NCBI GenBank assembly: GCA_026387335.1
Contig: JAPLLX010000007.1
Span: 243-64,242, forward strand
Direction of reading: 5' to 3'
Source: Candidatus Omnitrophota bacterium
GTDB taxonomy: Bacteria; Omnitrophota; Gorgyraeia; Gygaellales; Profunditerraquicolaceae
Length of the DNA stretch: 64,000 nt
Part shown: positions 4,362 to 48,355 of the stretch, piece after piece
Layout: each line of letters starts with the position of its first letter
Numbering within the stretch: the first letter of the stretch is position 1
Position numbers and translations under genes: made by a program
Notes under the pieces: generated by a model
Databases searched by the model: none
What the model was told of the DNA's origin: nothing
Seen by the model: only the letters and a program-made list of their open reading frames with translations

Positions 4362-5813
4362 ATGGAGTTGAACGAACTTATCCAACAAAGAAAGGCTAAA
4401 GCCGAAGCGCTTAAAGCCAAAGGGGTTGTTTTATACCCTAGCCAAAGCTCTAAATATGTGAGCATAGGCCAGGTTTTGGTTGATTTTAAGGAAGGCCAGA
4501 AATTAGCCTTTTGCGGCCGCATTACTGCCAAACGTTCGCACGGAAAAGCCGCGTTTTTAGACTTAAGGGATTCAACCGGAAAGATTCAGCTTTATATCAA
4601 AAAGGATATCGTAGGAGAAGATAACTTTTTTATCTTCGAGAATATCGATATTGCTGATTTTGTCGAGGTAACCGGCGAACTTTTTAAGACGCATACCGGT
4701 GAGCCTACGCTTAAAGTAGAAGCAATGAAGGTTCTGGCCAAAGCTTTAAGGCCGCTTCCTGAAAAATGGCATGGCCTGCGGGATGTCGATATCCGCTACC
4801 GGCAGCGTTATCTGGATTTGATTGCGAATGAAGATGTAGCTAAAGTATTCCAGCAGCGTTCAAAAATAATTAAAGCGATCCGGGATTTTCTCGACGCCAA
4901 AGGCTTTCTAGAGGTAGAGACTCCGATGATGCATTCTATTCCGGGGGGTGCCGCCGGCAGGCCGTTTAAGACCTATCACAATGAATATAGTATGGATTTA
5001 TTCTTGAGGATTGCTCCGGAGCTCTATTTAAAACGGCTTTTAGTTGGAGGCTTGGACCGGGTTTACGAGATCAACCGCTCTTTCCGCAATGAAGGCGTAT
5101 CTACCCGGCATAACCCTGAGTTTACGATGTTGGAAGTTTACCAGGCTTATTCTGATTACGCCGGGATGATGCATTTAGCTGAAAGTTTAATAGTAACTTT
5201 AGCGCAAGGCATTTGCGGTAAAACGATTATCAATTATCAGGGTAAGGAGCTGGATTTTACTCCTCCCTGGAAGCGGATTTCTTTTAAAGAATTGGTCAAG
5301 AATGAATTTGGCATTGTTCCTGAGGATGACGCAGCCCAAATGCTCAAAAAGCTTAAAGCCAAAGGTTTTGCCAAAGAGGTAAATAAGCTTTCGCGCACGC
5401 AGATCGCCAAGATCATCGAGGAGGTTCTCGAAGGGCAGATGAGTTTAAATCCTACTTTCGTTACGGATTATTTCAGCAGCATGTGCCCGTTAGCTAAGAG
5501 TAAGTTGGACGAACCCCTAGTCTCGGAGAGGTTTGAATTATATATAGCCGGAATGGAAGTCGGCAATGCCTACTCCGAGTTAAATGATCCCCTTGAGCAG
5601 AGGGCTCGCTTTGAAGATGAGATTAAAGAGCTTGTAACTGCTGAACAGAAGAATATTGACGATGATTATTGCCTGGCGCTTGAGCACGGTATGCCTCCGG
5701 CAGGCGGGTTGGGTATCGGCATAGACCGGCTGGTAATGCTTTTAACCGATCAACCTTCAATCAGGGATGTAATTTTGTTCCCTCTTTTACGTTCGGAGCA
5801 AGAAGATAAATAG
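4362..5813 (+). CDS. lysS: Lysine--tRNA ligase (class II)
   Basis: OB-fold N-terminus and class II motifs (FRNEG, GGLGIGIDRLVMLL). The length of 483 aa is typical. Confidence 0.95.
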   Translation: MELNELIQQRKAKAEALKAKGVVLYPSQSSKYVSIGQVLVDFKEGQKLAFCGRITAKRSHGKAAFLDLRDSTGKIQLYIKKDIVGEDNFFIFENIDIADFVEVTGELFKTHTGEPTLKVEAMKVLAKALRPLPEKWHGLRDVDIRYRQRYLDLIANEDVAKVFQQRSKIIKAIRDFLDAKGFLEVETPMMHSIPGGAAGRPFKTYHNEYSMDLFLRIAPELYLKRLLVGGLDRVYEINRSFRNEGVSTRHNPEFTMLEVYQAYSDYAGMMHLAESLIVTLAQGICGKTIINYQGKELDFTPPWKRISFKELVKNEFGIVPEDDAAQMLKKLKAKGFAKEVNKLSRTQIAKIIEEVLEGQMSLNPTFVTDYFSSMCPLAKSKLDEPLVSERFELYIAGMEVGNAYSELNDPLEQRARFEDEIKELVTAEQKNIDDDYCLALEHGMPPAGGLGIGIDRLVMLLTDQPSIRDVILFPLLRSEQEDK

Positions 5814-30439: not shown

Positions 30440-31537
30440 TTAAGGCAGCCGGTTGATTAAAGAGATACTGAAGGCAAGAGCGATTATATGGGCCAGAGAA
30501 GCAGCCAGAAACGGCGGGAGGACCCCCCCGCGGCCTATAGCGATACACACCGCATCGACTATATAATATAAAAATCCCACGATAATTGAAATCCCGATAG
30601 AAGAAATGCCGGTGGCGCGTTTTTGGATCATCAGGGAAAAAGGTATTCCCAGTAGGATTATCACTAAGCTAGCGAAGGGCGCGGTAAATTTCTGATAGAG
30701 GTCTATTTTTAAGTTGCGGATAACCGTTGTTGCTCCGCTGCGGGATAGTTTCCAGATATAATTATCCAATTGATTAATGGTCATATATTCCGGACGCTGC
30801 CTTTGGGCCAGAAAATCATTCGGCGTCTCCGGTATCGTCATTATTTCTTCATCCAGGTATTGCGGTTCTTCAATGATTTGGCCGTTACGGTCAAAGTTGT
30901 AAGTGATTGACTGGTAAAATTTCCACAGCCCATCCTCATAGACGCCCTTGTTGGCCACCACCTTACGGGTCAGGTTCTGCTCTTCGTCCTGCTCAAGTAT
31001 GATTATCCCGTCCATTGTTTTAGTCGAGGGGTAAAACTTGTTGACAAAGAAAAGCCTGTTTTTTGAGCCGTACATGGAAAGGTTGATCAGCGACTCGGTT
31101 TTTTCTTTCTTGCCTATTTTGCCTTCGGCCATTTTGGCCTGTATTCTTTTGGTTTCCAGCATTGCCTGTGGCGCAAAACGGTCGTTGATCCAGAAAACAA
31201 GCAGGCTTATCATAATACCAAAGAGGATAACTGTTTTGGCAATATAAAAGATACTTAAGCCGGACGCGCGCATAGCTATGATTTCGTTATTATGGTTGAG
31301 TTTGCTGAAAGTATAGAGCGTGCTTAAAAGGCAGGCAAAAGGAGCCACCTGAACAAACATGATCGGCAGGTAGGTTAAATAATATTTGATCAGGAGCGTG
31401 TAATGGGTCTGCTGCCTTAGGATATCATCCAGATGCGAAAGCACGTCGATTACTACGTACATAAAGAGGAAGACGAATATGCAGGAGACAAAAATAGAGA
31501 CGACCGATTTTAAGATATATCTGTCTAGGATACGCAT
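30440..31537 (-). CDS. lptG: LPS export ABC permease, LptF/LptG family (second gene)
   Basis: MRILDRYILK N-terminus typical of YjgP/YjgQ permeases. Six TM segments and a periplasmic beta-jellyroll insert. Confidence 0.8.
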   Translation of the reverse strand: MRILDRYILKSVVSIFVSCIFVFLFMYVVIDVLSHLDDILRQQTHYTLLIKYYLTYLPIMFVQVAPFACLLSTLYTFSKLNHNNEIIAMRASGLSIFYIAKTVILFGIMISLLVFWINDRFAPQAMLETKRIQAKMAEGKIGKKEKTESLINLSMYGSKNRLFFVNKFYPSTKTMDGIIILEQDEEQNLTRKVVANKGVYEDGLWKFYQSITYNFDRNGQIIEEPQYLDEEIMTIPETPNDFLAQRQRPEYMTINQLDNYIWKLSRSGATTVIRNLKIDLYQKFTAPFASLVIILLGIPFSLMIQKRATGISSIGISIIVGFLYYIVDAVCIAIGRGGVLPPFLAASLAHIIALAFSISLINRLP

Positions 31538-32631
31538 AATCTAAAGGTTAGGATTGAGCCGAGTGTCCCGAATATTATATTGGGGATCCAAATGGCCAGG
31601 GCCGGGTTGATAGCGCCTTGTATCCCTAAGGATTCGCATCCGATAAGCAGCGGATAATAGACCACGATAATGAGTATGGCAATACCGATATTAATGGATT
31701 TTTCCCTGCGCCGGGTAATTATGGCCAGGGGTATACCCATAAGTATAAAGACAAGGCAGGAGAAGGCGAGGGTCAATTTCTCGTGGATCTCATTGATGAG
31801 CGGAGCGGGGTTTATGCCTTCTTTTCTTAATTTCTTTACTTCTTTACTTAATTCCTGGATGGTCATCTCTTTATATTTTTTTTCTATATTAGTGTTTTTT
31901 TGCGCGTCAGCCATGTTTAAATTCATAAAGTAGGTCTTAAAATTGAGCTTATAAAAATTAGTCGGGTTATTCGGGTCAGGCTCATCGCTTGTGCCGTCCA
32001 TAAGTTTTAATTTTACGTTATTTTTCTCCGGGACGCTTATAAACTCACCGCTTCTGGCAACGATTGTGCGCGTAGGCTTATCTTCTCCCTGGGGCTCATA
32101 TATGCGCACATTAAGCAGCCGGTTACGTTTTTGGTCCACCTTATAGATAAAAAGCACGTATTTCTGGAAGGAATTAATAAAAACCCCTTCTTCAAACGCG
32201 GCTGTCGGGTTTTTTACGCCTATTTCAATCAAGGTCTTGCGGTATTCATAATGCGCGTAGGATGCTGCCCGGTCATTGAACAAGACCAGGCCCAGGCTTA
32301 GGATCAACCCCAACGTAAGCACGGGGAGTATGAGTTTAAAAATATTTATGCCGCTGGCCCTTATGGCGATAATCTCATTATCGCTGGAGAGCCTTCCCAG
32401 GGACATAAGCACGGCGACGAGGATAGAGATAGGCAGGGCATAGGTGATTATATAAGGAGTCATCAGCAGAAATACTTTGATCACGCTGATTATATCCACG
32501 CCTTTATTGATGACCAGGTCAGCGATCTTTTTTAAGTTGCCTACTACGACCATAACGAAGCTTAAAACCCCCAGGGTCAGGAAGAAGGGGCCGATAAATT
32601 CTTTTAACAGGTAATTACGCAGTATTCGCAT
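31525..32631 (-). CDS. lptF: LPS export ABC permease, LptF/LptG family (first gene)
   Basis: MRILRNYLLKEF N-terminus and the same architecture as its neighbour. 13-nt overlap with the downstream gene. Confidence 0.8.
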   Translation of the reverse strand: MRILRNYLLKEFIGPFFLTLGVLSFVMVVVGNLKKIADLVINKGVDIISVIKVFLLMTPYIITYALPISILVAVLMSLGRLSSDNEIIAIRASGINIFKLILPVLTLGLILSLGLVLFNDRAASYAHYEYRKTLIEIGVKNPTAAFEEGVFINSFQKYVLFIYKVDQKRNRLLNVRIYEPQGEDKPTRTIVARSGEFISVPEKNNVKLKLMDGTSDEPDPNNPTNFYKLNFKTYFMNLNMADAQKNTNIEKKYKEMTIQELSKEVKKLRKEGINPAPLINEIHEKLTLAFSCLVFILMGIPLAIITRRREKSINIGIAILIIVVYYPLLIGCESLGIQGAINPALAIWIPNIIFGTLGSILTFRLCVS

Positions 32632-32634
32632 ATT

Positions 32635-33360
32635 TTAATTGGCTAAAGTCAATACAAAGACTATATTTGCTCCGGCATTTTTCATTGTGTGGGCCGCTTC
32701 GGAAGAGGTGGCGCCGGTAGTCAGGACATCATCAACTAACAATACATTCTTATTCCTTAAATCATAACTAGCCGCGACGGAAAAGCTCTCTTTTACATTC
32801 AGGAAGCGTTTATTTATAGGCAGTTCTGTCTGGGTCCGCGTCAGCCGATGCCGGATAAGGGCCTGGGGTGCTAAGTTTTTATTAAACTCAGTCGCGATAT
32901 GCCTGCTTAAGGCTTCCGCCTGGTTAAACTCTCTTTCGCGCAAACGCGTTTTATGTAACGGCATAGGGATTATAAAGTCCAGGTAATCAATAGGCAGGTC
33001 ATATTCCCTGATAAATTCAGTCATTAGCTTACTTAAAGGCTTAGCCAGATGCGCCTTGCCTTTATATTTAAATTCATGGATCAATTCTTTTATCACTCCT
33101 TCATATAAGCAGGGGCTAAAGGCGCGGTCAAAACTTAAAGCCTTTTTTAAGCAACCCAGGCAGATATTTTTATGCAGGCTATCTTTCTCCAGGTGCCTTC
33201 CGCAGCTTGAGCAGAAAGGAGGGATATTCCTCTTAATTTTGAGCCGGCATGAGCCGCAGATGTATTCTTCTGTTGCTTGAGCCGTAAGCTTGTGTTTACA
33301 GCTCAAGCACGTTTTTGGATACGCGATATCCGTTAATCCCCGGATAAAACGACGCAACAT
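32635..33360 (-). CDS. comF: ComF family protein (phosphoribosyltransferase domain with N-terminal zinc ribbon)
   Basis: CLSC...CGSC / CSSCG...CLGC zinc ribbons. C-terminal PRT motif VLLVDDVLTTGAT. Confidence 0.85.
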   Translation of the reverse strand: MLRRFIRGLTDIAYPKTCLSCKHKLTAQATEEYICGSCRLKIKRNIPPFCSSCGRHLEKDSLHKNICLGCLKKALSFDRAFSPCLYEGVIKELIHEFKYKGKAHLAKPLSKLMTEFIREYDLPIDYLDFIIPMPLHKTRLREREFNQAEALSRHIATEFNKNLAPQALIRHRLTRTQTELPINKRFLNVKESFSVAASYDLRNKNVLLVDDVLTTGATSSEAAHTMKNAGANIVFVLTLAN

Positions 33361-33405
33361 AAAGATATGATAACAGCTAATTTACTAAAAGTCAAAAGTA
33401 AAAAG

Positions 33406-33434
33406 TTGACACAGGCAGTTAAGGATAGTAGAAT
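33406..33434 (+). promoter_or_regulatory. Sigma-70-type promoter for pyrE (TTGACA-N17-TAGAAT)
   Basis: TTGACA at 33406-33411, a 17-nt spacer and TAGAAT at 33429-33434, in the divergent comF/pyrE spacer. Confidence 0.5.
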
Positions 33435-33443
33435 AAATAAACT

Positions 33444-34001
33444 ATGGGCAACGGTATAAAAGAATTAAAAACCCAGCTACTAGCGCTCCTGGATAAAGAG
33501 GCGTTAAAAAGGGGTAATTTTGTCCTCTCTAGCGGTAAAACCAGCAATTATTATCTTGATGGCCGCGTAATCACCCTGACTCCCGAAGGCGCGTATCTGG
33601 TGGCGAGTATTATACTGGAGCTGCTTAAGGATAAAAAAATAGACGCGCTGGGCGGCCCGACTTTAGGGGCAGACCCTATAGTGGGAGCGGTTGCCTGCCT
33701 TAGCCACATGAAAAATATTCCTTTAAAGACGTTTATTGTAAGAAAAGCGACTAAAGAGCATGGTATGACCCGTCAGATTGAGGGCCCGGAGATAAAAAAA
33801 GGGAGCCGGGTAATTTTGGTTGATGATGTGGCGACAACCGGAAAAGCCCTCCTGGAAGCAAAACATGCCCTGGATAAGATCGGCGTCATTGCCGATACTG
33901 CCCTGGTCATTGTAGATAGATGCGCAGGCGCCACAGAGAACTTAAGTAAAGAAGGTTTGCAGCTGGAATCTATATTTACTATAAAGGATTTCGGTCTCTA
34001 G
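33444..34001 (+). CDS. pyrE: Orotate phosphoribosyltransferase
   Basis: F.LSSGK.S.YY.D N-terminus and PRT motif VILVDDVATTGKA. Confidence 0.9.
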   Translation: MGNGIKELKTQLLALLDKEALKRGNFVLSSGKTSNYYLDGRVITLTPEGAYLVASIILELLKDKKIDALGGPTLGADPIVGAVACLSHMKNIPLKTFIVRKATKEHGMTRQIEGPEIKKGSRVILVDDVATTGKALLEAKHALDKIGVIADTALVIVDRCAGATENLSKEGLQLESIFTIKDFGL

Positions 34002-34016
34002 GGGCCTCTAAACAAA

Positions 34017-35258
34017 GTGTTAAAAAAAAAGATAATAGTAGTCGGCGCAGGCCCAGCCGGAATGATGGCTGCGATAAAAGCGGGCTCACTAGCTCAAGAA
34101 GTAATCCTCGTTGATAAAAATCCATCCTTAGGCAAGAAACTCCTCCTTAGCGGTAAAGGCCGCTGTAATTTAACCAACGCCAGCGATCTAGACTCATTCT
34201 TAAAAAGATTCTCCAAAAACGGGGAATTCTTAAGGGATGCCTTTAAGAAATTCTTTAACCAGGAGCTGATGGATTTTTTCCAGGAGAGAGGGCTGCCCCT
34301 AAAAGTAGAGAGGCAGTTACGCGTTTTTCCGGTTACGGATAGTTCAAACAGCATCGTAAATACGCTGGAGAAAGAATTGCTTAAGCAGAATGTAAAGATC
34401 AAGCTTAATTCCAAAGCAACAGATGTGTTGGTAGAAAATAATCAGATCAAGGGGCTGTATTTAGAGGAGGAAGAGTTTATTCCTTGTGACAAAATAATTT
34501 TAGCCACCGGAGGCGTCTCTTATAGTTTTACCGGCTCAACCGGCGAGGGTTTGGAATTGGCCAAAAAAACAGGCCATAATATTGTAGCCTTACGGCCGGG
34601 CCTGGTCCCGTTAGTCGTGAGTGAAAAATATATTAAAACATTAGAAGGCCTGACCTTAAAAAACATCCGCCTTAAATTTGGCGCGGGCAGAAAGGAGATT
34701 ATCTCCGAGGTCGGGGAGTTGTTATTTACAAGTTTTGGGATATCCGGACCGTTAGTCCTTACTCTCAGCGCTAAGATAGCGAATTGGTTGGCTGACAAGA
34801 AGGAAGTCTTTGCCGATATAGATTTAAAACCGGGGTTAACGGTTGAGCAACTCTCTGCCCGTTTTTTGCGGGAATTTAAGACTAACGCCAAGAAGGGGAT
34901 TAAAAATGTTATGAAGAGTTTATTGCCTATAAAGTTGATTGATTTGTTTATGGAGTTGGCAAAAATAAATCCGCATAAAAAGGCCAATCAGGTTACGCAA
35001 AAGGAACGCGAGACGCTTGTCACTTTGCTTAAGGGCTGGCGTTTAAATATCTCCGGCACAAGGCCGATAGAAGAGGGGATGGTCACCCAGGGCGGAGTTT
35101 CTTTAAAAAACATCAACCCGCGTACTATGGAATCGCGGATAATTAAGGGGTTGTATTTTTGCGGAGAGATGATTGATGTGGACGCGGATACCGGAGGATT
35201 TAACCTTCAGGCGGCATTCTCTACCGGATACTTAGCAGGAGAAAGCGCGGCATTATGA
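34017..35258 (+). CDS. FAD-dependent oxidoreductase, HI0933/BaiN family
   Basis: GAGPAGMMAA dinucleotide motif, GKGRCNLTN, ATGG.SY..TGSTG.G, GG.NLQ.AFSTG C-terminus. Confidence 0.85.
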   Translation: MLKKKIIVVGAGPAGMMAAIKAGSLAQEVILVDKNPSLGKKLLLSGKGRCNLTNASDLDSFLKRFSKNGEFLRDAFKKFFNQELMDFFQERGLPLKVERQLRVFPVTDSSNSIVNTLEKELLKQNVKIKLNSKATDVLVENNQIKGLYLEEEEFIPCDKIILATGGVSYSFTGSTGEGLELAKKTGHNIVALRPGLVPLVVSEKYIKTLEGLTLKNIRLKFGAGRKEIISEVGELLFTSFGISGPLVLTLSAKIANWLADKKEVFADIDLKPGLTVEQLSARFLREFKTNAKKGIKNVMKSLLPIKLIDLFMELAKINPHKKANQVTQKERETLVTLLKGWRLNISGTRPIEEGMVTQGGVSLKNINPRTMESRIIKGLYFCGEMIDVDADTGGFNLQAAFSTGYLAGESAAL

Positions 35259-36601
35259 AAAATATATATTTAGCTTCTCACTCTAAGGCTCGCCAAAAAT
35301 TATTAAAATCACTGGGCCTGAAATTTAAAGTCCTTCCCGCTAGAATTAAAGAGAGAAGGAGCGCAAAAGGGATATCCTATGCTGACCTTGTAAAGCTAAA
35401 CGCGCGCCAGAAAGCCGAAACTGCTTCCCGAAAAGTAAAGTCCGGGATTATTATTGCCGCGGATACGATTCTGGTCCAGGACGGCAAAATATATGGTAAG
35501 CCCAAAGACTTAAAAAGCGCCCGGCGCATGCTTAAAACAATATCCGCCAAACCGCAAACTGTCTATACCGGTATTGCCGTAATAAAAAAGGGAGAGGGCA
35601 GGGAAAAAATACTGCTGGATTACGAAAAGACCGATGTTTATATGGATAAGTTAAGCGATAAAGATATAGATGCTTATTTTAAGAAAGTTTCTCCTTTAGA
35701 TAAAGCCGGAAGTTTTGACATCCAGGCCAAAGGCGCTCTTTTTATCCGGGGGGTGAGGGGCTGTTTCTATAATGTGGTAGGTCTGCCTTTAAGAAAACTT
35801 TATACGATGTTTAAAAAACTGGATATAAGGTTATATTTGTTTTTTCTGGCTCTGGTTTTCTTAGCCGGTTGTTCTACGGAATATAATATCGTTACCGGAG
35901 AACAGGAGGTCTACTACTATAGCACGGATAAAGAAGTCCAGATGGGCCAGGCTGTTGCCCGGGAAGTGGCCAAGCAATATAAATACACCGATGACCCGCT
36001 GTTACAAAAGCGGGTTGAGGATATCGGTAAGAAAATAGTCGCGGTGAGCGATAGGAAAGAAATAGATTACCATTTTTTTGTATTAGACGAGGATGAGGTA
36101 AATGCCGTTTCCCTGCCCGGAGGTTATGTTTATATATTTAAGGGGTTAGTGGATAAAGTAGCTAACGATGATGAGCTGGCCGGAGTCATAGCCCACGAAG
36201 TCGGCCATATAGTCGCTCGCCACAGCATCAAGAAACTGCAGGCCCTTCAGGGTTATTCCATATTAAGAATACTTGTAGCGGCAGCCCCGTCTTCGGGCGA
36301 AGTAGGAAATGCCGCGGATGTCGCTTTTACCGAGCTGCTTCTAGGCTATTCCCGGGAAGATGAACTGCTGGCTGATCAGTTAGGCGCTCGGTACATAAAA
36401 TCAGCCGGGTATGACCCGCATGCTATGATTTCATTTTTACAGAAACTTCAGGAGGTCAATCGCCGAAGGCCTCTTCAGCCAAAATCATATTATAAAACTC
36501 ACCCCTATACTCCGGACAGGATCAGGGTAGTCAAGGAAGAATTGGGAGAGCGGATTGATTTTGACGATTACATTAATATTGAACAAAATAAACATAAGTA
36601 G
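35255..36601 (+). CDS. maf: In-frame fusion: Maf nucleoside-triphosphate pyrophosphatase (aa 1-~190) plus M48 metalloprotease lipoprotein (BepA/YfgC-like). An internal ATG at 35807 precedes a lipoprotein signal peptide.
   Basis: Maf motifs (LASHSKARQKLL, IIAADT, AGSFDIQ). Then MFKKLDIRLYLFFLALVFLAGC (lipobox LAGC) and HEVGHIVARH (HExxH). No stop codon separates the two parts. Confidence 0.8.
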   Translation: MKNIYLASHSKARQKLLKSLGLKFKVLPARIKERRSAKGISYADLVKLNARQKAETASRKVKSGIIIAADTILVQDGKIYGKPKDLKSARRMLKTISAKPQTVYTGIAVIKKGEGREKILLDYEKTDVYMDKLSDKDIDAYFKKVSPLDKAGSFDIQAKGALFIRGVRGCFYNVVGLPLRKLYTMFKKLDIRLYLFFLALVFLAGCSTEYNIVTGEQEVYYYSTDKEVQMGQAVAREVAKQYKYTDDPLLQKRVEDIGKKIVAVSDRKEIDYHFFVLDEDEVNAVSLPGGYVYIFKGLVDKVANDDELAGVIAHEVGHIVARHSIKKLQALQGYSILRILVAAAPSSGEVGNAADVAFTELLLGYSREDELLADQLGARYIKSAGYDPHAMISFLQKLQEVNRRRPLQPKSYYKTHPYTPDRIRVVKEELGERIDFDDYINIEQNKHK

Positions 36602-36612
36602 GCTAAATTTAT

Positions 36613-37602
36613 ATGAATAATCCTTTCGGGGTATTGGAATTTTTGCACTGGAACCATCCCTGGAATAATTATAAGTATTCCAGCCCGGCGCACTGGCAAA
36701 AGGTAATAAAGCTGATGAAAGAAGCGGGAGTCGGCTGGGTGAGGATGGATTTCTTGTGGCAGGATATTGAACCCAAGGAAGGTAAGAGCGTATTTGATAA
36801 ATATGATCAGGTCGTAGATTTATTAAATAAGAATAAGATACATATTCTGGGTATTCTTAATTATGGCGTTGAATGGGCTGGGGACTCTAAAAAATGGAAC
36901 TGCCCGCCGAAAGATAACAATCTTTTTGTTAAATACGCTGTCAGGGTAATCCGGCGTTATAAGGATAAAATAAAACATTGGGAGGTTTGGAATGAGCCTG
37001 ACTCCGGAGTTTACTGGTCAGCTCAGGACGGATTAAAGAGCTATTGCGCTTTGCTCAAGTCTGTCTATATCGCCGCTAAAAAGGTTGATCCGGATTGTAA
37101 AATCTTAAACGGCGGTTTAGCCAACGGCTCAAACAGCATTAACAACCTTTATGCTAATGGCGCCAGGAAATATTTTGATATCCTGAACCTGCATTTTTTT
37201 GAAACTCCTTTGCATAAAGGGGGAATAAAGGGGGTAAGCGCTTATACAAAATTGGCCCGTAAGATAATGGTCCGCAACGGCGATGGAAATAAGAAGATAT
37301 GGCTTACTGAAACCGGCTGCCCCGGAGTTAAGCGGGGCCTGAAGACCGGTAATTGGTGGATAGGTAAGAACCCCAGTGAAAGAGAGCAGGCTTCCTGGGT
37401 CAGAAAAGTTTATACTGAATTGCTTAAGAATAAGAATGTAGAGAAGGTCTTTTGGGCATTTTTCCGCGATTGTTCAGGCCATTGGGATAATGGCGTGGAT
37501 TATTTTGGCCTGGTCCGTTGGGATTATTCCCGTAAACCCGCGTTTAAAGCCTATAAAGAATGTTTTAATAAATGGAAAAAAGGAAAAAATGCGAAAAATT
37601 AA
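36613..37602 (+). CDS. Clan GH-A (GH5/GH39-like) TIM-barrel glycoside hydrolase, no signal peptide
   Basis: Acid/base motif HWEVWNEPD and nucleophile motif WLTETGCP. Family assignment is not resolvable by eye. Confidence 0.6.
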   Translation: MNNPFGVLEFLHWNHPWNNYKYSSPAHWQKVIKLMKEAGVGWVRMDFLWQDIEPKEGKSVFDKYDQVVDLLNKNKIHILGILNYGVEWAGDSKKWNCPPKDNNLFVKYAVRVIRRYKDKIKHWEVWNEPDSGVYWSAQDGLKSYCALLKSVYIAAKKVDPDCKILNGGLANGSNSINNLYANGARKYFDILNLHFFETPLHKGGIKGVSAYTKLARKIMVRNGDGNKKIWLTETGCPGVKRGLKTGNWWIGKNPSEREQASWVRKVYTELLKNKNVEKVFWAFFRDCSGHWDNGVDYFGLVRWDYSRKPAFKAYKECFNKWKKGKNAKN

Positions 37603-39166
37603 AGAATTCATCCGCGCCTGCGAAGAGAGCCGCTTAGGTTTTGGTTTATGGATAACATCAGCTTTGTTTATAATCCTTATTCGCGATTCCATTGAGAGCC
37701 TGGTCAGCACGAATTCCTTCCCGCCGCTAAATGCCTTCCATTTTCTGCATGTCCCGGTATTCTTTCTAACGGCGCTTTTGTCAATAATTATCCTGCTGCG
37801 TTTGTTCACCAAAGAAGATATTCTAAAAGTCTCAAAAATATGCCTTTTCTTTTTTGCGGTGATAATCTTTCCGGCTGGCCTGGATTTAATAGTCTCTTTA
37901 ATAACTAAGACCAATATATCGTACGGTTATATTGACCAGAATGTTATAAGGTCAGTTACGAATTTCTTTAATCCGATTTATAAGATTCCCGCTGTTCCCT
38001 ACAGCCTGCGCCTGGAAATCTTATTTATTTGTATTTTCTCTTTTCTATATATACAGATCAAGACTAATAAAATATTTCTTTCTATCCTGGGGGCATTCTT
38101 AGTTTTTTGTTTGTGCACTCTTTACGGAGCCTTACCCGGATTATTGGTAAGCGCTTTCGTAAAGGTAATCGCTTTCCTGTTTCACATTTTTCATCCTTTG
38201 TTCTTTGGAAAGGAAGTCAGGGGTGTGGTGGATGAAAATATTATAGTCATAGTCGAACTGATTTTGGCTTCTTTAGCAGCCGGGTTATGGTTTTGGCTTT
38301 ATGACCCCAAAAAATTCCAGGTTGTCCTGAAAGATTTCAGGTTCAACCGCTACTTTTGCTGCTTTATATTACTGACAATAGGCGTGGGATTGTATCTATA
38401 CTCAGCTAAAGGCTTAGATGTCTTTATCGGGCTTAAGATTTTAGCCATGTTCTTAGCTTTATTCTTCGCTGTGCGTTTTTCGGCGCTGCTCAACGATATA
38501 TTTGACGTAGATTGCGACAGGGTCTCCAATAAGGAGAGGCCGTTAGTAAGCGGAATAATCAGCGCCGGCGAATATCTAAAGGTCGGTTTAGTTTATTTAA
38601 CTTTTTCTTTATTTTTTAGCATCTGGGTAAGTCAGAATTGCTTTGTGCTTAATCTGCTTTTTATAGGAGTATATTTCTTATATTCTGTCCCGCCTTTTAG
38701 GCTCAAGCGTTTTTTTGTCTTCTCTTCTTTGATTACCGGGCTACAGGCATTATTGATCCTGTTAATGGGTCAGGTCTCATTAGCCAAGGATGATACCACT
38801 GTATTATTGTATCCGCCTTTATTATGGTTGGCCTTCCTGATTTTCTTCTTAGGTTCCAATATAAAAGACTTAAAAGATATAGAAGGGGATAGGCTTTGCG
38901 GAGTTTATTCTCTGCCGGTTATCTTCGGAGAGAGGAAAGCCAGGAAAATAATAGGCTTTTTGGTATTTTTAAGCTATCTTTTGTTCCCGGTATTCCTGGC
39001 GGATGTCATCTGGGATATTAAAATAACCGCGCTCTCTTTAATTTTCGCTTTCTTGAGCTATTTTTATATCCGTAAGCCGGATTCAAATGAGCGGATAATA
39101 TTTCTACTCTATTTTCTCTATGTATTTATCGCCGCCTGCTTTTTTATTTTTCCTATTGGAGGATAA
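37589..39166 (+). CDS. Large polytopic membrane protein with C-terminal UbiA-family prenyltransferase domain
   Basis: UbiA Asp-rich motifs NDIFDVDCDRVSNKERPLVSG and KDLKDIEGDRLCGVYSLPVIFG in the C-terminal half. The N-terminal ~300 aa are extra TM helices. ATG at 37589 has an AAAGGA RBS, and the track start at 37490 overlaps the GH gene. Confidence 0.7.
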   Translation: MRKIKEFIRACEESRLGFGLWITSALFIILIRDSIESLVSTNSFPPLNAFHFLHVPVFFLTALLSIIILLRLFTKEDILKVSKICLFFFAVIIFPAGLDLIVSLITKTNISYGYIDQNVIRSVTNFFNPIYKIPAVPYSLRLEILFICIFSFLYIQIKTNKIFLSILGAFLVFCLCTLYGALPGLLVSAFVKVIAFLFHIFHPLFFGKEVRGVVDENIIVIVELILASLAAGLWFWLYDPKKFQVVLKDFRFNRYFCCFILLTIGVGLYLYSAKGLDVFIGLKILAMFLALFFAVRFSALLNDIFDVDCDRVSNKERPLVSGIISAGEYLKVGLVYLTFSLFFSIWVSQNCFVLNLLFIGVYFLYSVPPFRLKRFFVFSSLITGLQALLILLMGQVSLAKDDTTVLLYPPLLWLAFLIFFLGSNIKDLKDIEGDRLCGVYSLPVIFGERKARKIIGFLVFLSYLLFPVFLADVIWDIKITALSLIFAFLSYFYIRKPDSNERIIFLLYFLYVFIAACFFIFPIGG

Positions 39167-46792: not shown

Positions 46793-47222
46793 GGGGTGAA
46801 TTGGGCTCGACTTAGGCCGTCGGGTAAGAGCAGCATGTCGCGGACGCATGGTTAGCCGCGTTAATAACCCGTGCACAATATAAACGCAAGAACAGTATCA
46901 AGTTCTATAGCAAACGAGAGATATAGTGTTGTTCCGCAAATCGGAATGCCTATGTCTTTTCCTGCTATGGCGTTAAAAGCCATTCCTTAATAAAATAAGG
47001 AATGCCTCAATCTGATCTGCCTAAGGGTTGGAATTGAGCGCTAATTTAGGCTGGTCTTCTGCTAGTTGCCTTGCGGCAGGGGATAAGAGCGGTAAAAGGC
47101 TGCGCTTTGCAAATCCTGCCCCGCAGGAGTTGCAAGAGCAAGTTTAAAATGCGGGGCTAAACATGTAGCGGCTTTTATTCGTTTGTTTAAGGACGCCGGT
47201 TCGATTCCGGCCACCTCCACCA
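46792..47222 (+). ncRNA. ssrA: tmRNA (ssrA)
   Basis: 5' GGGGGUGA..GGCUCGAC and a 3' tRNA-like end GGACGCCGGUUCGAUUCCGGCCACCUCCACCA. Internal tag frame ends in UAAUAA (46988-46993) at the top of a 9-bp hairpin. Confidence 0.9.
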
Positions 47223-47250
47223 AATTTTTGCGACAAGCAAAAATTTGGTG
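47218..47250 (+). terminator. Perfect 12-bp hairpin overlapping the tmRNA 3' CCA end (terminator or processing signal)
   Basis: CACCAAATTTTT (47218-47229) and AAAAATTTGGTG (47239-47250) are exact complements. No U-tract follows. Confidence 0.5.
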
Positions 47251-47263
47251 GCACTCAATAAAT

Positions 47264-48355
47264 ATGAAACCTAAAAACCAGATAATCTTAGCCTTTATTT
47301 TCTGCGCGGTTATTACTTTCTCCGGCTGCGCCACAGCTCCGCTTAAAGAAGCTCTTCCTGTTTACAATATAAAGGGAGCGACTTATTATCCGCTTATTCC
47401 GCTCTGTGAACTAAGAGGAGTAAACTGGCAATACGATACATTCACCAGGATTGTCAGCCTAAGCAAGGGCGCGCATAGGGTAAGCCTTAAGGCCGGGGAT
47501 GATCTAGTCTTGGTAAACCAGAGAGCTTTAATACTTAATCATCCGGTGGATATCTATGAAGGTACAATAGTTGTCCCGGCTAAATTTAAAGAACAGGTTA
47601 TAGATGTATTATTCAAAACGTTAAAATCCACTCCTGCGAAACCCGTAGGTTTTAACATCTCCGCTAAAATCCGGAAGGTGATTATTGACGCCGGCCACGG
47701 CGGTAACGACCCCGGGGCAATAGGCAGGACCGGCTTAAGAGAAAAGGATGTTAACCTGGATATCGCCAAGAGGCTGGCTATACTCCTAAGGTCGGAAGGA
47801 GTCAATGTGGTGATGACCCGCAGCACCGATAGGTTTATCCCTTTGGATATGCGGGTGCAGATCACCAATAACGCCAAGGTGGATTTATTTATAAGTATTC
47901 ATTCCAACGCCAATCATGCAAGAAGCATGAATGGTTTTGAAGTTTATTATGTAGCTACAAGTTTGAATGACGCCAAACGCGCGCTTTTAGCTGCCCGCAG
48001 CGCCAACCTCAATTTAGAGAGCGCGTCTTTTGCCAGTAATTCCCTGGAGCTAAGAGCTATACTTTGGGATATGCTTTATGCTTATGACCGCGCGGAGTCA
48101 ATACAATTGGCCCGCAATATTTGTAAATCGGTCGGCAGTAATATGGATGTCCGGGTCATCGGAGTAAAAGACGCGCGTTACGAAGTTTTGCGCGGGGCGC
48201 GTGTGCCGGCGGTTTTAGTCGAAACCGGATTTTTATCTAATTATAAAGAAGAGCGTATGCTTAAAAATGGATATTACCGCCAGAAGGTCGCGGAAAGTAT
48301 AATGGAAGGCCTGCGCGATTACGCTCAAGGATTAGCATCAACGGAGGGCGTTTAA
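47264..48355 (+). CDS. N-acetylmuramoyl-L-alanine amidase (Amidase_3) lipoprotein
   Basis: Lipoprotein signal (FSGC), IDAGHGGNDPGA, SIHSNA, ETGFLSN motifs. The listed ORF start at 47183 lies inside the tmRNA, so ATG 47264 was chosen. Confidence 0.9.
   Translation: MKPKNQIILAFIFCAVITFSGCATAPLKEALPVYNIKGATYYPLIPLCELRGVNWQYDTFTRIVSLSKGAHRVSLKAGDDLVLVNQRALILNHPVDIYEGTIVVPAKFKEQVIDVLFKTLKSTPAKPVGFNISAKIRKVIIDAGHGGNDPGAIGRTGLREKDVNLDIAKRLAILLRSEGVNVVMTRSTDRFIPLDMRVQITNNAKVDLFISIHSNANHARSMNGFEVYYVATSLNDAKRALLAARSANLNLESASFASNSLELRAILWDMLYAYDRAESIQLARNICKSVGSNMDVRVIGVKDARYEVLRGARVPAVLVETGFLSNYKEERMLKNGYYRQKVAESIMEGLRDYAQGLASTEGV

Follow-up and report, generated by a model that had tools for sequence, protein, structure and literature searches.

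The cytochrome b/c1 precursor FbcH of Bradyrhizobium japonicum, described by Thony-Meyer et al. in 1991, is reportedly split at an internal signal peptide. The cut is made by signal peptidase I, and the upstream part of FbcH is a polytopic membrane protein. Here, we analyze a 64,000-nucleotide stretch of DNA from a Candidatus Omnitrophota bacterium (GenBank assembly GCA_026387335.1, contig JAPLLX010000007.1; the whole stretch is referred to below as the window), in which one open reading frame (ORF) joins a complete Maf nucleotide pyrophosphatase, a cytoplasmic house-cleaning enzyme, to an M48 zinc metalloprotease through an internal lipoprotein-type signal peptide. The gene fusion is real and is conserved across one Omnitrophota lineage, and its product is predicted to be divided at a lipobox that lies behind the Maf domain.

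Maf proteins share the signature S-R-E-K-D-K (i.e., Ser10, Arg13, Glu33, Lys52, Asp70, and Lys82), and the Maf fusion described so far joins this domain to a C-terminal methyltransferase domain in eukaryotes (ASMTL), not to an exported protein (Tchigvintsev et al., PMC3899018). Our literature search found no report of a Maf-M48 fusion, of a polyprotein processed by signal peptidase II, or of any site for this enzyme that is internal, and nothing relevant on N-terminally extended lipoprotein signal peptides. A survey paper on Omnitrophota makes no mention of Maf, M48, lipoprotein, or septum.

Anatomy of the fused ORF

Translation from position 35255 always yields a precursor of 448 amino acids (aa), because no stop codon separates the two domains. 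The arrangement proposed in the initial annotation (i.e., Maf, no stop codon, a lipoprotein signal peptide, and an M48 domain with HEXXH) agrees with our reading of the ORF and with the Pfam matches. The features of the ORF are as follows.

35255..36601, plus strand: whole fused ORF (Maf, signal peptide, and M48 preprotein); 448 codons plus stop; protein P0001
35255..35830, plus strand: Maf nucleotide pyrophosphatase domain, aa 1-192; Pfam and NCBIfam matches, alignments to PDB entries 1EX2, 4P0E, and 4P0U
35807..35809, plus strand: in-frame ATG, codon 185 (Met185), candidate internal start; residue of the last Maf helix
35807..35869, plus strand: internal lipoprotein-type signal peptide, aa 185-205; n-region MFKKLDIR, h-region LYLFFLALVFLAG
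35861..35872, plus strand: lipobox L203-A204-G205-C206; Cys206 codon TGT at 35870-35872
35870..36598, plus strand: predicted mature M48 zinc metalloprotease lipoprotein, aa 206-448, N-terminus CSTEYN; Pfam PF01435
36194..36208, plus strand: HEVGH zinc-binding/catalytic motif, aa 314-318 (H314, E315, H318); invariant columns and BepA alignment
36362-36364, plus strand: candidate third zinc ligand E370; invariant column

The stretch between the domains consists of MFKKLDIRLYLFFLALVFLAG and then Cys206. The Bacillus subtilis Maf (1EX2; 189 aa) aligns with aa 2 to 192 of the query and reaches its own residue 188 there. Because this is its penultimate residue, no linker separates Maf from the signal peptide, and the last basic Maf helix (KLYTMFKKLDIR) doubles as the n-region, with its positive charges, of the signal peptide. 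In the AlphaFold2 (AF2) model, two independently folded domains are joined by a low-confidence segment (aa 197 to 218) containing a short helix, which is itself placed with low confidence at aa 194 to 201, between the Maf and M48 folds. The predicted local distance difference test (pLDDT) values, taken by block, are mostly 76 to 95 in Maf (63 to 68 over aa 151 to 180) and mostly 70 to 97 in M48.

Spread and conservation of the fusion

The Logan assembly of run SRR20698650 contains the DNA of the window over 3287 identical bp, junction included, and an identical protein (P0001) is present in both NCBI and Logan. The best 120 database homologs are all fused (437 to 469 aa; both Pfam domains; 68 to 100% identity), and fused protein clusters number at least 120. 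Wherever the source of these 120 homologs is named, it is an Omnitrophota metagenome-assembled genome (MAG), and some of the homologs already bear the NCBI name "Maf and M48 domain-containing protein." The intact fused ORF occurs in the same neighborhood in 29 species-representative genomes (64 to 81% identity). Remoter fused forms were recovered from a library clustered at 50% identity (e.g., P0121, with 43% identity), and the context of P0121 is that of the window (i.e., lptF/lptG-comF, then pyrE-maf::M48). A second fused group, with proteins of approximately 440 aa, shows 43 to 50% identity to the window protein; P0121 and P0123 are both fused. An assembly error, which the initial annotation had named as a possible cause of the continuous frame, is excluded by the identical independent assembly, by the same junction in the 29 species, and by its recurrence in at least 120 clusters.

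Both halves of the protein are, judging from residue conservation, under selection, because the Maf residues S10, R13, E33, K53, and D70, the M48 residues H314, E315, H318, and E370, and the lipobox residues G205 and C206 are invariant in an alignment of 64 fused sequences (alignment A1), 16 of which belong to the second group. Maf K82 is at least 90% conserved in the same alignment.

At one locus (L029, 4001-5378), the fused ORF is interrupted within the M48 part, with a first piece of 338 aa and a second piece from approximately position 4983; a frameshift, decay to a pseudogene, or faulty assembly would each account for the interruption. Five other carriers of the fusion (L015, L016, L020, L023, and L024) have third-party annotation (TPA) titles that read "uncultured Planctomycetales bacterium." These are probably taxonomic mislabels, since the loci are syntenic with Omnitrophota loci and 64 to 69% identical to them.

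Origin from a neighboring gene pair

After the fused proteins, the C-terminal half is most closely related to ordinary lipoproteins that are 250 to 300 aa long and have an N-terminal signal peptide aligning from approximately query residue 185 to 200 onward. The gene maf is followed immediately by that of the M48 lipoprotein at five independent Omnitrophota loci without the fusion (called gaps of -8, +62, -4, -4, and +25 nucleotides), with pyrE upstream in four of the five; examples of the unfused pyrE-maf-M48 string are L045, L047, L041, L044, and L048. The typical junction between the two unfused genes is a stop/start overlap of the form ATGA or GTGA. Standalone Omnitrophota Mafs end in the strongly conserved MLKKVGVSIL*, and the tail is 10 residues long in 113 of 120. 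In the second fused group, the junction reads ...MLKK[VIFM]GVS[IL]LS..., followed by the h-region and GC, i.e., the Maf tail was kept and is read through. The unfused string has orthologous genes in the order seen in the fusion, with MLKKVGVSIL as the Maf tail and GC[ST]TEYNLAT at the mature M48 N-terminus in both; unlike the fused gene, it consists of two ORFs, and its M48 protein has its own start and n-region.

Because other Omnitrophota keep pyrE, maf, and the M48 gene separate and adjacent, often overlapping, the fusion is, by this comparison, derived from a conserved pair of neighboring, presumably cotranscribed genes. The aligned junctions show a maf/M48 stop/start overlap that has been lost and a basic C-terminal Maf helix that now forms the signal-peptide n-region. 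The initial annotation considered an expression link between the two functions to be unusual; for Omnitrophota this is wrong, as pyrE-maf-M48 is a conserved gene string there. It had also proposed that a stop codon between the domains in related genomes would point to an error. Separate maf and M48 genes do exist in distant Omnitrophota, but they reveal where the fusion came from and do not indicate an error. The architecture is less surprising than it may look, since annotation pipelines already recognize it and the step that produced it from an overlapping pair was trivial.

In neighbor-joining trees of the M48 domain and of the Maf domain, fused and unfused sequences interleave within the second group, with bootstrap values mostly below 50%. 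The fused/unfused state appears to switch within Omnitrophota; these trees call for at least two changes of state, whether fusions or fissions. The more distant unfused M48 lipoproteins P0125, P0126, and P0128 have no maf adjacent to them, and no M48 ORF was among those scored at three maf loci from outside Omnitrophota (L031 to L033). Within this sample of loci, only those of Omnitrophota had maf paired with M48. The closest standalone Maf of the window type (P0193, L035) lies on a contig that ends 80 bp past its stop codon.

Many unfused Omnitrophota M48 lipoproteins have, before the hydrophobic core and lipobox, a conserved and very basic N-terminal extension of 40 to 60 aa (MKIRN[TP]K[HS]EIRNKF...) (P0297, P0335, P0360, P0363, P0368, P0377, and P0386; L044 at 2435-2501 and L047 from 2501). 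The extension at L044 begins with the ATG overlapping the stop codon of maf, so that the called M48 start at 2501 is probably too late. Judging from these proteins, the lipoprotein pathway of Omnitrophota seems to tolerate n-regions of considerable length.

Internal signal peptide and lipobox

The junction has the composition of a lipoprotein signal peptide (i.e., KK..R in a basic n-region, a core of 13 residues, and L-A-G-C, which fits [LVI][ASTVI][GAS]C), and its position is not N-terminal, as aa 185 to 205 lie behind a complete Maf domain. None of the 120 close fused homologs departs from Gly at -1 or Cys at +1 of the lipobox, and this invariance extends to the 16 second-group proteins of alignment A1; position -3 is Leu in 79%. 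Species without ATG at codon 185 conserve the lipobox too. In the unfused orthologues, the homologous site is the N-terminal lipobox, and the mature N-terminus C[ST][TS]EYN is conserved as in those orthologues, which have ordinary N-terminal lipoprotein signal peptides. The lipobox is, on this pattern of invariance, under strict selection. Cys206 is predicted to be lipidated and, once signal peptidase II (LspA) has cut, to stand at +1.

The hydrophobic core, in contrast to the lipobox, drifts freely in sequence and length, in the fashion of a signal peptide. It comprises 10 to 24 uncharged residues in the fused proteins (median, 17), and 28% of the cores have 15 residues or fewer. For comparison, unfused cleavable signal peptides have a median of 15, and the second fused group has one of 16 (16 to 17 residues).

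No other convincing internal lipobox was found in the window. For an ORF at 47096-48355 (plus strand; putative start codon), the signal peptide (MKPKNQIILAFIFCAVITFSGC) is N-terminal and of the canonical lipoprotein type, which shows that the same genome encodes putative lipoproteins of the ordinary kind.

Predicted fate of the precursor

The initial annotation rightly left undecided whether the frame yields a second protein by internal initiation at 35807, an uncleaved fusion anchored in the membrane, or a fusion split by signal peptidase II. Because the full-length precursor is made in every case, the choice that matters lies between the last two. The best-supported outcome, which we favor with modest confidence, is that the fused precursor would be exported, lipidated, and cut at the internal lipobox. 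The internal hydrophobic segment would act as a type II signal anchor with N-in/C-out orientation, an arrangement that is not unusual where a protein has a large cytoplasmic domain at its N-terminus. Maf would stay in the cytoplasm while the M48 domain is translocated via the signal recognition particle (SRP) and Sec; Lgt would add diacylglycerol to Cys206, and LspA would cut before it. One product would be a mature periplasmic or outer-membrane M48 lipoprotein, and the other would be Maf with a signal peptide of approximately 13 to 20 residues as a C-terminal membrane tail, which might tether Maf or be trimmed by signal-peptide peptidases. One gene would in this way supply two proteins, one on each side of the inner membrane. 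We favor cleavage by signal peptidase II because Gly-1 and Cys+1 are invariant and the cores are of signal-peptide size. With somewhat less assurance, and tentatively, we propose that the precursor may represent a natural trans-membrane polyprotein, i.e., a single chain that is split by Lgt and LspA and whose spent signal peptide is reused as the membrane tail of Maf.

Several points weigh against cleavage at the internal lipobox. We infer lipidation, cleavage, topology, and the fate of Maf alike from sequence. Lgt and LspA normally meet N-terminal signal peptides, and our literature search found no documented natural substrate of these enzymes with a folded domain of approximately 185 aa in front; the Maf fold, which precedes the signal peptide without a linker, might hinder them. 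Cores of 19 residues or more make up 44% of those in the window clade versus 11% in unfused orthologues, a shift that SRP targeting or a permanent anchor, if selected for, could explain. Finally, Met185 is kept in 84% of the fused proteins, which leaves room for some internal initiation. A phmmer search for lgt and lspA with E. coli queries gave no match in the 64-kb window, which is uninformative given so small a piece.

The main rival to internal cleavage, although an unlikely one, is an uncleaved bitopic protein, in which the hydrophobic segment would be a permanent type II anchor between a cytoplasmic Maf and a periplasmic M48 domain and Cys206 would be unmodified, or lipidated and left uncleaved. 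Such a topology with a large cytoplasmic N-terminal domain is common in bacteria (e.g., ToxR, RodZ, and RseA), the fusion has been stable over deep divergence, and the longer cores of the window clade would suit a permanent anchor. However, a plain anchor has no need of the Gly-1 and Cys+1 residues that are kept throughout both fused groups, and the shorter cores, down to 10 uncharged residues, are too short for a stable span of the bilayer, while those of the second fused group resemble cleavable signal peptides. A permanent anchor is disfavored by the short, drifting cores together with the AF2 model, in which the two domains are joined by a low-confidence segment.

We consider it still less probable that the M48 prelipoprotein is made mainly from the ATG at 35807, with the read-through fusion as a minor or unproductive by-product. 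A protein started there would have a textbook lipoprotein signal peptide (MFKKLDIR, h-region, LAGC), approximately 40% of the genes in the window begin without a clear Shine-Dalgarno signal anyway, and Met is present at position 185 in 101 of the 120 fused clusters. The codon, however, is ATG in 21 of the 29 species, ATT in five, ATC in two, and AGC in one, so that it is lost in eight species with the lipobox intact; at two loci (L002 and L003), there is no ATG, GTG, or TTG between the Maf core and the hydrophobic core. Position 185 is also Met in 114 of 120 standalone Omnitrophota Mafs (95%), where it cannot be an M48 start, compared with 101 of 120 fused proteins (84%). Because standalone Mafs carry this Met, and do so more often than the fused proteins, Met185 is an inheritance from Maf. 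The codons upstream of it vary freely at synonymous positions, and without a stop codon every Maf molecule still carries the signal peptide and M48, so that the cell has to deal with the fusion in any case.

The upstream sequence gives internal initiation no better footing. The duplex energy with the anti-Shine-Dalgarno (anti-SD) sequence is -1.4 kcal/mol upstream of 35807, against window medians of -5.3 kcal/mol at the first starts of long ORFs and -2.4 kcal/mol at internal ATGs; across the 29 loci, no Shine-Dalgarno enrichment was found upstream of codon 185 (-1.95 versus -2.72 kcal/mol at other internal ATGs). The check for an internal ribosome-binding site suggested in the initial annotation thus returned no signal, either present or enriched. 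With a codon lost in 8 of 29 species, no Shine-Dalgarno signal, and a Met that belongs to Maf, internal initiation at Met185 is, on these comparisons, not the conserved mechanism, although it may add some free prelipoprotein in species that keep the ATG. Two related candidates were rejected: a relic of the M48 start codon, since the Met is present in standalone Mafs too, and a conserved internal ribosome-binding site, on the basis of the anti-SD energies in the window and at the 29 loci.

An artefact or a decaying gene (i.e., a stop codon lost or a frameshift gained through an assembly or sequencing error, or a recent neutral, pseudogene-like event, with M48 unexported) would fit a MAG-derived sequence and the broken M48 part of one relative (L029). 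It is nevertheless very improbable, as the DNA recurs unchanged in an independent assembly and the in-frame junction in at least 120 clusters and 29 species is accompanied by an invariant lipobox and invariant catalytic residues in both domains.

Maf and M48 domains

The Maf half matches Pfam PF02545 over aa 3 to 188 (profile positions 1 to 186 of 187; 176 bits against a cutoff of 27) and belongs to the Maf family TIGR00172 (161 bits against a cutoff of 117). The S-R-E-K-D-K signature is intact in the fused protein, catalytic Asp70 included. At the specificity positions, the window Maf has A12-T71-Q157 (35288-35290, 35465-35467, and 35723-35725), and this triplet is found, by position, in 114, 117, and 118 of 120 members of the window clade. 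The second fused group and the standalone Omnitrophota Mafs have Q-T-E instead. The window protein agrees with the YhdE subfamily motif R12-T71-Q153 at two of three positions, with Ala in place of Arg at position 12; neither A-T-Q nor Q-T-E equals the canonical motif of YhdE (R-T-Q) or YceF (W-Q-E). These residues suggest that the substrate preference of Maf may differ between Omnitrophota clades.

The M48 half belongs to Pfam Peptidase_M48 (PF01435; aa 249 to 429; 120 bits against a cutoff of 20.3). Besides the invariant HEVGH and E370 columns, H416 in a THP motif aligns with the His of the BepA LTHP motif; E370 and H416 are candidate zinc ligands. The nearest solved structure is the Geobacter M48 peptidase 3C37 (253 aa; 137.6 bits). 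The protease domain of BepA matches at approximately 93 bits, and BepA structures align solely over residues 45 to 254. The label "BepA/YfgC-like" used in the initial annotation holds for the catalytic domain but not for the whole protein, which ends 24 residues past the protease-domain match, has no tetratricopeptide repeat (TPR) domain, and scores 134 bits against the cutoff of 570 for the BepA equivalog NF052400, over profile positions 41 to 251 of 483 alone. It likewise falls outside NF052399 (LoiP; 66 bits against a cutoff of 365).

Gene neighborhood

Two genes precede the fused ORF on the same strand.

33444..34001, plus strand: pyrE, orotate phosphoribosyltransferase; TIGR00336, 147.7 bits against a cutoff of 106.8, and synteny
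34017..35258, plus strand: flavin adenine dinucleotide (FAD) flavoprotein of the aminoacetone oxidase family (HI0933-like), between pyrE and maf

Whether maf and M48 are fused or separate, pyrE is their conserved upstream neighbor in Omnitrophota. The TGA of the flavoprotein gene overlaps the ATG of maf (ATGA at 35255-35258), an arrangement that suggests cotranscription and translational coupling. Nearly all window-clade loci that extend to this region have the flavoprotein gene between pyrE and maf (L025 lacks it), and none of the other clades examined has it there.

A divergent arrangement of lptG-lptF-comF-like genes (minus strand) and pyrE-(flavoprotein)-maf-M48 (plus strand), at 30440-36601 in the window, is shared by the window clade and the fused clade with 43% identity (L037); at the unfused locus L044, one LptF/LptG-family gene is visible before the end of the locus. 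The location of a BepA-like protease beside permease genes for lipopolysaccharide export may hint at a role in outer-membrane biogenesis. Downstream of the fused gene, an ORF for a UbiA-like prenyltransferase (37490-39166, plus strand; 558 aa in its longest frame) overlaps the 3' end of a glycosyl-hydrolase-like gene (36613-37602) by approximately 110 nucleotides. The UbiA match covers aa 290 to 554 only, and the start of the longest frame is a candidate.

Implications and comparison with known systems

If the precursor is processed as proposed, Lgt and LspA would accept an internal signal peptide behind a folded domain of 185 residues, and a cytoplasmic protein and an envelope protein would be made from one gene in fixed 1:1 amounts. 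Among natural substrates of signal peptidase II, the precursor would, as far as we have found, be the first to have a large folded domain at its N-terminus, and it would offer a ready test of whether the enzymes of lipoprotein maturation care what precedes the signal peptide. In this lineage, Maf would be membrane tethered, and this touches on the cell biology of Maf, of which little is understood. If the protein is left uncleaved, it would still be an unusual bitopic pair of enzymes, with limited general consequence. The locus also bears on how cross-membrane gene fusions arise from overlapping stop and start codons. Prediction tools and annotators that expect N-terminal signals will call the fused protein cytoplasmic or simply "Maf."

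The fused Maf shares its full-length fold and signature with the YhdE-type Mafs (B. subtilis 1EX2/4HEB; E. coli YhdE 4P0E). With respect to the specificity motif of YhdE, which acts on dTTP, UTP, m5UTP, and pseudo-UTP, T71 and Q157 match and position 12 differs. Among these proteins, only the fused Maf has a C-terminal helix that runs directly into a signal peptide. The M48 domain has HEXXH and a downstream Glu in common with 3C37, with the BepA protease domain, and with LoiP and YcaL. In LoiP and YcaL, as in the M48 domain of the fused protein (approximately 240 aa), a lipobox stands ahead of the mature domain; unlike in these proteases, the signal peptide of the fused protein is internal and not N-terminal. 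The nearest functional precedent known to us is FbcH, in which one ORF reportedly gives two mature proteins and an internal Sec-type signal peptide is the site of export and cleavage, as we propose here. The fused Maf-M48 protein, known here from its sequence, differs from FbcH in that the predicted processing enzymes are Lgt and LspA and in that the upstream part would be a soluble cytoplasmic enzyme.

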